Source: Escherichia coli
GTDB taxonomy: Bacteria; Pseudomonadota; Gammaproteobacteria; Enterobacterales; Enterobacteriaceae
DNA length: 64,000 bases
Strand: one strand, 5' to 3'
NCBI RefSeq assembly: GCF_009931435.1
Contig: NZ_CP043414.1
Part shown: positions 35,327-35,806 of the stretch, in pieces
How positions within the stretch are numbered: position 1 is the stretch's first letter
How the letters are laid out: each line of letters begins with the position of its first letter
The notes under the pieces: model-generated
The model's input: only the letters and a program-made list of their open reading frames with translations
Databases searched by the model: none
Told to the model about the DNA's origin: nothing
Position numbers and translations under genes: made by a program

Positions 35327-35806
35327 ATGAAACGAATTGCGTTTGTGGGTGTCGTCGGGGCAGGAAAAACAACGTTATTTAATGCGTTGCAGGGGAATTA
35401 TACCCTCGCCAGAAAAACACAGGCCGTGGAATTTAATGATAAGGGCGATATTGATACGCCGGGTGAATATTTTAGCCATCCCCGCTGGTATCACGCCTTA
35501 ATTACCACGCTACAGGATGTGGACATGCTGATTTATGTCCACGGCGCGAATGACCCGGAAAGCCGATTGCCTGCCGGGTTGCTGGATATTGGTGCCAGCA
35601 AACGGCAAATCGCCGTCATCAGTAAAACGGACATGCCGGATGCTGACGTCGCAGCAACGCGAAAGTTATTGCTTGAAACTGGTTTTGAAGAGCCGATTTT
35701 CGAGCTAAACAGCCACGACCCGCAAAGCGTGCAGCAACTGGTGAATTATCTGGCATCTCTCACCGAACAGGAGGAAGCAGGTGAAAAAACTCATCACAGC
35801 GAATGA
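35327..35806 (+). CDS. eutP: ethanolamine utilization P-loop GTPase/acetate kinase-like EutP
   Basis: 159-aa ORF with Walker A motif GVVGAGKTT. Confidence 0.9.
   Translation: MKRIAFVGVVGAGKTTLFNALQGNYTLARKTQAVEFNDKGDIDTPGEYFSHPRWYHALITTLQDVDMLIYVHGANDPESRLPAGLLDIGASKRQIAVISKTDMPDADVAATRKLLLETGFEEPIFELNSHDPQSVQQLVNYLASLTEQEEAGEKTHHSE

Follow-up and report, generated by a model that had tools for sequence, protein, structure and literature searches.

The eut genes form one operon, with a promoter upstream of eutS. Co-directional overlaps account for about 15 % of gene pairs in most prokaryotic groups (PMC6728339), and a 4-nt overlap (-4) is the most frequent configuration in E. coli (Huber et al., 2023; PMC10666635). 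For five E. coli -4 pairs, strong coupling was reported in three, coupling of about 60 % in one, and none in the fifth, bioBF (Huber et al., 2019; PMC6728339). Re-initiation is reduced by 40-80 % at a spacing of +14 nt and almost none is left at +38 nt (PMC10666635). Unfolding and scanning models have both been described (2025 review; PMC12548453), and resistance to kasugamycin has been published as a mark of coupled genes (cited in PMC12548453). A literature search on translational coupling in the eut operon returned no match. The overlap between eutP and eutQ is already known, since it has been stated for Salmonella, in which codons 1-9 of eutQ overlap eutP and were retained in a deletion design (Yang et al., 2025; PMC12487888).

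The window, a stretch of 64 000 nt of E. coli DNA, contains a complete 17-gene operon, eutSPQTDMNEJGHABCLKR, as seen from the ORFs and their translations. All of the genes are co-directional and are flanked by maeB and hemF, as in the enterobacterial EUT1 locus. The number of genes, their order, and the five overlaps are the same as in the known EUT1 of E. coli and Salmonella enterica (PMC11334477; PMC12487888); K-12 BW25113 has a prophage after eutA, whereas the window does not. When 20 kb were compared, identity was 98.4 % to E. coli strain 24A16CRGN010 and 93-94 % to other species of the genus Escherichia, and the PGAP annotation of 24A16CRGN010 has the same gene boundaries and all five overlaps. 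Of 5,426 complete E. coli genomes, 5,415 had a match to a 3.9-kb query, with up to 98 % identity. Across 34800-38700 the best identity was 98.2 % and none of the 5,415 matching genomes reached 99 %, an unusual result for a locus in E. coli; the window may derive from a lineage that the collection lacks, for instance Shigella or some divergent E. coli. Beyond the 3′ end of eutR, a DUF1963 gene (50299-51561, - strand) has a premature stop at Trp322; it is intact in 24A16CRGN010 (420 aa) and the copy in the window is probably a pseudogene.

Comparisons were made with 55 related loci, from Escherichia through Pseudomonas and Xenophilus, in which genes were modelled by tblastn and ORF extension. 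The locus of Citrobacter koseri NCTC10786 was excluded due to incoherent gene models, scattered with gaps of hundreds of nt; this locus is probably degraded or rearranged.

Five of the 16 junctions in the operon are overlaps, all of which are present in the window (see table). The overlap lengths of the first-pass annotation, 26 nt for eutP/eutQ, 4 nt for eutQ/eutT, eutT/eutD, and eutH/eutA, and 11 nt for eutJ/eutG, were all reproduced by measurement, the first at exactly the coordinates that it had given. The ATGA motif that it had assigned to all three 4-nt overlaps is present at eutQ/eutT and eutT/eutD; at eutH/eutA the sequence is instead GTGA. These three junctions belong to the -4/-1 class of short overlaps and the -11 and -26 junctions are outside it. 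All five downstream starts are orthologous across more than 50 species and the encoded N-termini are conserved in the 55 related loci (MKKLITANDIR for eutQ, and M(K/N)DFITEAWL, MIIERxR, MQxELQTALF, and VNTRQLLSVG), therefore none of the overlaps is a start-codon artefact.

Features of the eut operon in the window. SD, Shine-Dalgarno sequence, with estimated anti-SD pairing energies; junction distances are in nt.
Feature	Position	Strand	Details
eut operon	34979-49864	+	eutS start to eutR end
eutQ SD	35770-35775	+	GGAGGA, -10.3 kcal/mol; inside the eutP CDS, read there as Glu-Glu of the EutP tail
eutP/eutQ overlap	35781-35806	+	26 nt; eutQ GTG at 35781, eutP stop TGA 35804-35806
eutQ/eutT overlap	36479-36482	+	4 nt, ATGA; eutT SD energy -1.7 kcal/mol
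eutT/eutD overlap	37279-37282	+	4 nt, ATGA; SD GGGAGAG 37267-37273, -7.3 kcal/mol
eutM-eutN spacer	38628-38733	+	106 nt; two hairpins, fold -42.2 kcal/mol, z=-2.1
eutJ/eutG overlap	41273-41283	+	11 nt, ATGCAAAATGA; SD GGAGG 41262-41266, -10.0 kcal/mol
eutG-eutH spacer	42461-42676	+	216 nt; REP/BIME array, fold z=-5.4
eutH/eutA overlap	43900-43903	+	4 nt, GTGA; eutA start GTG; SD GGAGG 43888-43892, -9.5 kcal/mol
eutK-eutR spacer	48767-48811	+	45 nt; 12-bp hairpin 48776-48805, fold z=-3.3
Other junctions			S/P +12, D/M +38, M/N +106, N/E +11, E/J +10, G/H +216, A/B +11, B/C +20, C/L +9, L/K +12, K/R +45

Conservation of the overlaps differs between junctions. eutT and eutD overlap in all 48 loci compared, by -4 (30 loci) or -11 (18 loci), with an SD in every case. 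Of 43 loci, 34 have -11 at eutJ/eutG, Xenophilus among them, and eutH/eutA is -4 in 33 of 41, being +9 to +11 in Pseudomonas and Xenophilus. Taken over the relatives, the alignments indicate that overlap geometry is not very fixed. Neither are overlaps unusually common in this operon. Among 2,987 unidirectional gene pairs in E. coli, 707 (24 %) are spaced at -8 to +6 and 203 at +9 to +12 (PMC10666635). Three of the 16 eut junctions are in the former range, which is not an enrichment over the 24 % background (P=0.77). The commonest type is +9 to +12, with six of 16 (P=4e-4 when all unidirectional pairs are the reference, and less extreme when operon-internal pairs are), and the characteristic eut junction is therefore a short SD-bearing spacer, not an overlap. 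It is already known that overlaps of this kind are ordinary, annotated packing of bacterial operons and a standard textbook feature.

At eutP/eutQ, the frame of eutQ is +1 with respect to that of eutP, and the geometry varies by species: -26 (8), -23 (23), -4 (10), +4, +11, +12 (8), and +15. The EutP C-terminal tails cannot be aligned past YL..L and end 0-13 residues further on, depending on the lineage. The eutQ start is GTG in Escherichia, Salmonella, Citrobacter, and Klebsiella and ATG in Buttiauxella, Yokenella, Morganella, Serratia, Pseudomonas, and Xenophilus; in the related loci a KKLITANDIR-like sequence always follows it and an SD always precedes it, with a duplex of -10 to -12 kcal/mol in all of the -23 and -26 species. 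Where the overlap is -23 or -26 (31 loci), 13 of its columns vary, eight of them being third positions of eutQ, which are first positions of eutP, therefore the sequence is evolving as eutQ and not as eutP. Judged by these comparisons, the 26-nt overlap is best seen as a drifting, non-conserved EutP tail lying over the eutQ ribosome-binding site and its first 7-8 codons. Selection would hold the eutQ start and N-terminus, with the overlap a by-product: loss or shift of the eutP stop, by lineage, would let out-of-frame reading continue over the eutQ ribosome-binding site until the next stop. The -26 and -23 forms differ by a synonymous change in eutQ Ala7, GCG AAT GA providing the TGA stop and GCT AA a TAA stop, and this one GCG-to-GCT change in codon 7 would suffice to convert -26 to -23. 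Two long antisense ORFs opposite eutQ (35705-36250 and 35760-36473, - strand) were treated as shadow ORFs of the coding region.

It is very improbable that the overlaps, and chiefly that of 26 nt, are annotation artefacts, with eutQ truly starting without overlap at the ATG at 35841 (codon 21). This ATG is in frame, GTG is less often used as a start, and mis-annotation is known to arise from long overlaps. However, for the 20 residues ahead of Met21, conservation at the protein level (MKKLITANDIR) extends from E. coli to Pseudomonas and Xenophilus. At the position orthologous to 35781, which does not move, the codon is either GTG or ATG, with a strong SD 6 nt upstream in every species, and no SD precedes 35841; the start at 35841 was rejected on the conserved residues and the SD. 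In addition, EutQ's N-terminal region, residues 1-99, has been characterised functionally in Salmonella (PMC12487888).

Likewise, a programmed +1 frameshift, or slippage, at the A6 run at 35784-35789, generating an EutP-EutQ fusion, can be given almost no credence. The +1 relation of the two frames and the presence of GAAAAAAC in the overlap would agree with it. However, the eutP frame (GGT GAA AAA ACT) has no slippery heptamer X XXY YYZ, and among the related loci the A-run is not conserved, being interrupted in Klebsiella (GTGAAGAAAC) and missing in species with spacers; the fusion was dismissed on these two grounds. Moreover, eutQ possesses an SD and a start codon of its own, and EutP and EutQ act as separate proteins that differ in localisation and abundance (PMC12487888; PMC11334477).

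To what extent the overlaps couple translation was assessed from the anti-SD pairing energies estimated for all 17 eut genes, from predicted RNA folding, and from published protein abundance. At four of the five overlaps the downstream gene has a strong SD (-7.3 to -10.3 kcal/mol). Only eutT and eutR, of the 17, have none. The predicted cost of unfolding the region from -18 to +12 is 9.0-12.0 kcal/mol at the overlaps and 5.0-22.3 kcal/mol elsewhere, which does not separate the two classes and lends no support to coupling by RNA unfolding, in which an upstream ribosome would open an inhibitory structure over the downstream ribosome-binding site. The iBAQ values for E. coli, which are approximate and to which protein stability also contributes, are EutQ 100, EutM 96, EutL 39, EutB 37, EutE 27, EutC 24, EutS 11, EutD 10, EutK 8, EutG 7, EutP 7, and EutN 1 (Jallet et al., 2024; PMC11334477). 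EutQ is therefore about 14 times as abundant as EutP, so hand-over of ribosomes from eutP is not the main source of EutQ, and coupling as the source of stoichiometry at eutP/eutQ is contradicted. The same junctions occur as +4 to +15 spacers in relatives, which argues that the overlap itself is not required.

The first-pass annotation had proposed that translation is coupled over a large part of the operon. The geometry does permit coupling; the extent proposed is too great, given the SDs at four of the five overlaps, the excess of EutQ over EutP, the spacer states in relatives, and the restriction of overlaps to five of 16 junctions. Its stronger form, in which the overlaps are a designed system coordinating protein output over much of the operon, is unlikely. 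Three of the junctions are of the -4 type, for which coupling is the usual result in E. coli reporters (PMC6728339), the overlaps at eutT/eutD, eutJ/eutG, and eutH/eutA are well conserved, and 12 of the 16 junctions are at +20 nt or less, where some re-initiation remains possible (PMC10666635). Against this, protein levels diverge across other junctions as well as eutP/eutQ, with EutD at 10 and EutM at 96, and EutM at 96 and EutN at 1. Four of the overlaps have strong, independent SDs, overlap and spacer states are interchanged among relatives, and overlaps do not exceed the background in number. The overlap partners are not known subunits of one complex, whereas the genes of the real heteromer, EutB/EutC, are spaced at +20 nt.

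From the geometry, conservation, SD strengths, frame-specific variation, and published ratios, all of which are observed, we infer the routes of initiation. The five overlaps are, quite probably, normal stop/start junctions of enterobacterial eut operons, packed tightly on one mRNA, at which initiation would be mostly fresh, with eutT translated by re-initiation. For eutQ, eutD, eutG, and eutA, each with a strong SD within the upstream gene, initiation is probably mainly fresh, and ribosomes arriving from upstream may at most keep the site unfolded, or re-initiate. As far as the sequence indicates, the -4 junctions could plausibly be coupled, with coupling probably obligatory at eutQ/eutT alone.

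The eutQ/eutT junction exists in two forms. It is -4 in 18 species, all without an SD (-1.6 kcal/mol), and a spacer of +4 to +12 in 30 species, all with an SD (-6.6 to -8.3 kcal/mol). The ATGA form lacking an SD is found in Escherichia, including the window, where no SD is present upstream of the ATGA, and in Salmonella, Klebsiella, and some Citrobacter. The SD-bearing spacer is found in Pseudomonas, Morganella, Buttiauxella, and the C. freundii group, the +9 spacer of C. freundii being TAAggcggatgtATG. Because of this dichotomy, re-initiation is considered the probable main route at eutQ/eutT only, and on sequence features it is likely that this junction is the sole strong candidate among the five for obligate termination-reinitiation. 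EutT would most likely come from the fraction of ribosomes that end eutQ and then re-initiate on the overlapping ATG, and low EutT output, which we infer, would thereby be tied to translation of eutQ. EutT has been detected in E. coli proteomics, with 207-fold induction (PMC11334477). However, bioBF, an E. coli -4 pair with a weak SD, initiates independently (PMC6728339), and by analogy eutT could also do so.

A more specific proposal, which is tentative and perhaps somewhat less likely to be right than wrong, is that eutQ/eutT is an evolvable 'attenuating coupler', in which an ATGA without an SD replaced the spacer and EutT is set as a small fixed fraction of abundant EutQ, the state having switched at least twice. 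If true, this would provide a naturally occurring test that sets re-initiation against initiation de novo. Since eutT has no SD, nonsense or frameshift mutations in eutQ could lower EutT, a possible hidden polar effect.

A sixth overlap, at eutD/eutM, was considered and rejected. An ORF at 38292-38627 has its ATGA on the eutD stop, and the resulting extension is not conserved. The 14 additional codons are open only in Escherichia and, by chance, in K. oxytoca; elsewhere they are mostly closed by stops, whereas the SD AGAGGAAA ahead of MEALGM (38334) is kept in all species. As the extension is closed in most other genera, the real eutM start is 38334 (97 aa) and not 38292 (111 aa), and older, longer EutM models would be over-extended. 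Just past the eutD stop the spacer contains a small hairpin, GGTCC-N6-GGACC (38298-38313), whose conservation extends to Morganella, with GGTCCC-N4-GGGATC there. The hairpin is upstream of the SD of eutM, the product of which is among the two Eut proteins of highest abundance.

The contrast that had been drawn between the overlaps and long structured spacers after eutM, eutG, and eutK holds (see table), although the last of these is only 45 nt. Between eutM and eutN, a 10-bp GC hairpin at 38635-38660, the second-strongest terminator-like site of the region, has a pyrimidine/T-rich tail and is followed by the second hairpin. Relatives have a different, lineage-specific hairpin or a REP element at this position, and in lineages without REP the spacers have an invariant TACCTGAA motif in common. 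RNAalifold gave a near-zero consensus of -2.3 kcal/mol for the eutM-eutN spacers of relatives, because the sequence and register of the first hairpin vary by lineage. This hairpin could act in partial termination, or else stabilise the mRNA as a 3′ hairpin; in E. coli proteomics the EutM:EutN ratio is 96:1 (PMC11334477).

The eutG-eutH spacer is a REP/BIME element, matching Rfam naRNA4 (RF02564) at 42515-42596 with 73.4 bits (gathering cut-off 59.5). Tandem Repeats Finder identified 1.9 copies of a 100-nt period at 42462-42648 (95 % match). The spacer is 116, 216, 315, or 474 nt long across Escherichia, BIME copy number varying between genomes. A second REP/BIME element was observed at 17691-17767 (- strand; Rfam naRNA4, 89 bits).

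In the eutK-eutR spacer the hairpin ends 6 nt ahead of the eutR ATG. eutR has no SD at normal spacing (-1.7 kcal/mol), and its unfolding cost of 22.3 kcal/mol is the maximum for the operon. A GGAGG at 48773-48777 is 35 nt 5′ of the ATG, with the hairpin in between. The hairpin might bring this SD into range, as a split ribosome-binding site, or simply block eutR translation.

These results caution that an overlap alone does not equate to coupled output, EutQ exceeding EutP about 14-fold although their genes overlap by 26 nt. They also indicate that the ribosome-binding sites embedded in upstream genes are to be respected when eut deletions are designed, as was done for eutQ in the Salmonella study.

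Compared with the annotated EUT1 loci of E. coli and Salmonella, the window has a two-unit BIME of 216 nt between eutG and eutH, and its eutP/eutQ overlap is -26, whereas it is -23 in the two Salmonella loci examined. Short overlaps are enriched among pairs encoding heteromer subunits, however the eut overlap partners are not known to be such subunits. The tens of nucleotides shared by eutP and eutQ, the downstream gene starting within the upstream one, are reminiscent of the coat and lysis genes of the RNA phages MS2 and fr, which overlap by -38 to -50 nt (PMC12548453). In these phages the starts of the lysis genes are weak or structured, and they depend on termination of coat translation, whereas eutQ has a strong SD and a product far above that of the upstream gene. 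The closest described systems are the -4 termination-reinitiation pairs of Huber et al. (PMC6728339; PMC10666635), the geometry of which is that of eutQ/eutT, eutT/eutD, and eutH/eutA. Two of these three have an SD within the upstream gene, as do most overlapping pairs in bacteria. In contrast, eutQ/eutT has none.
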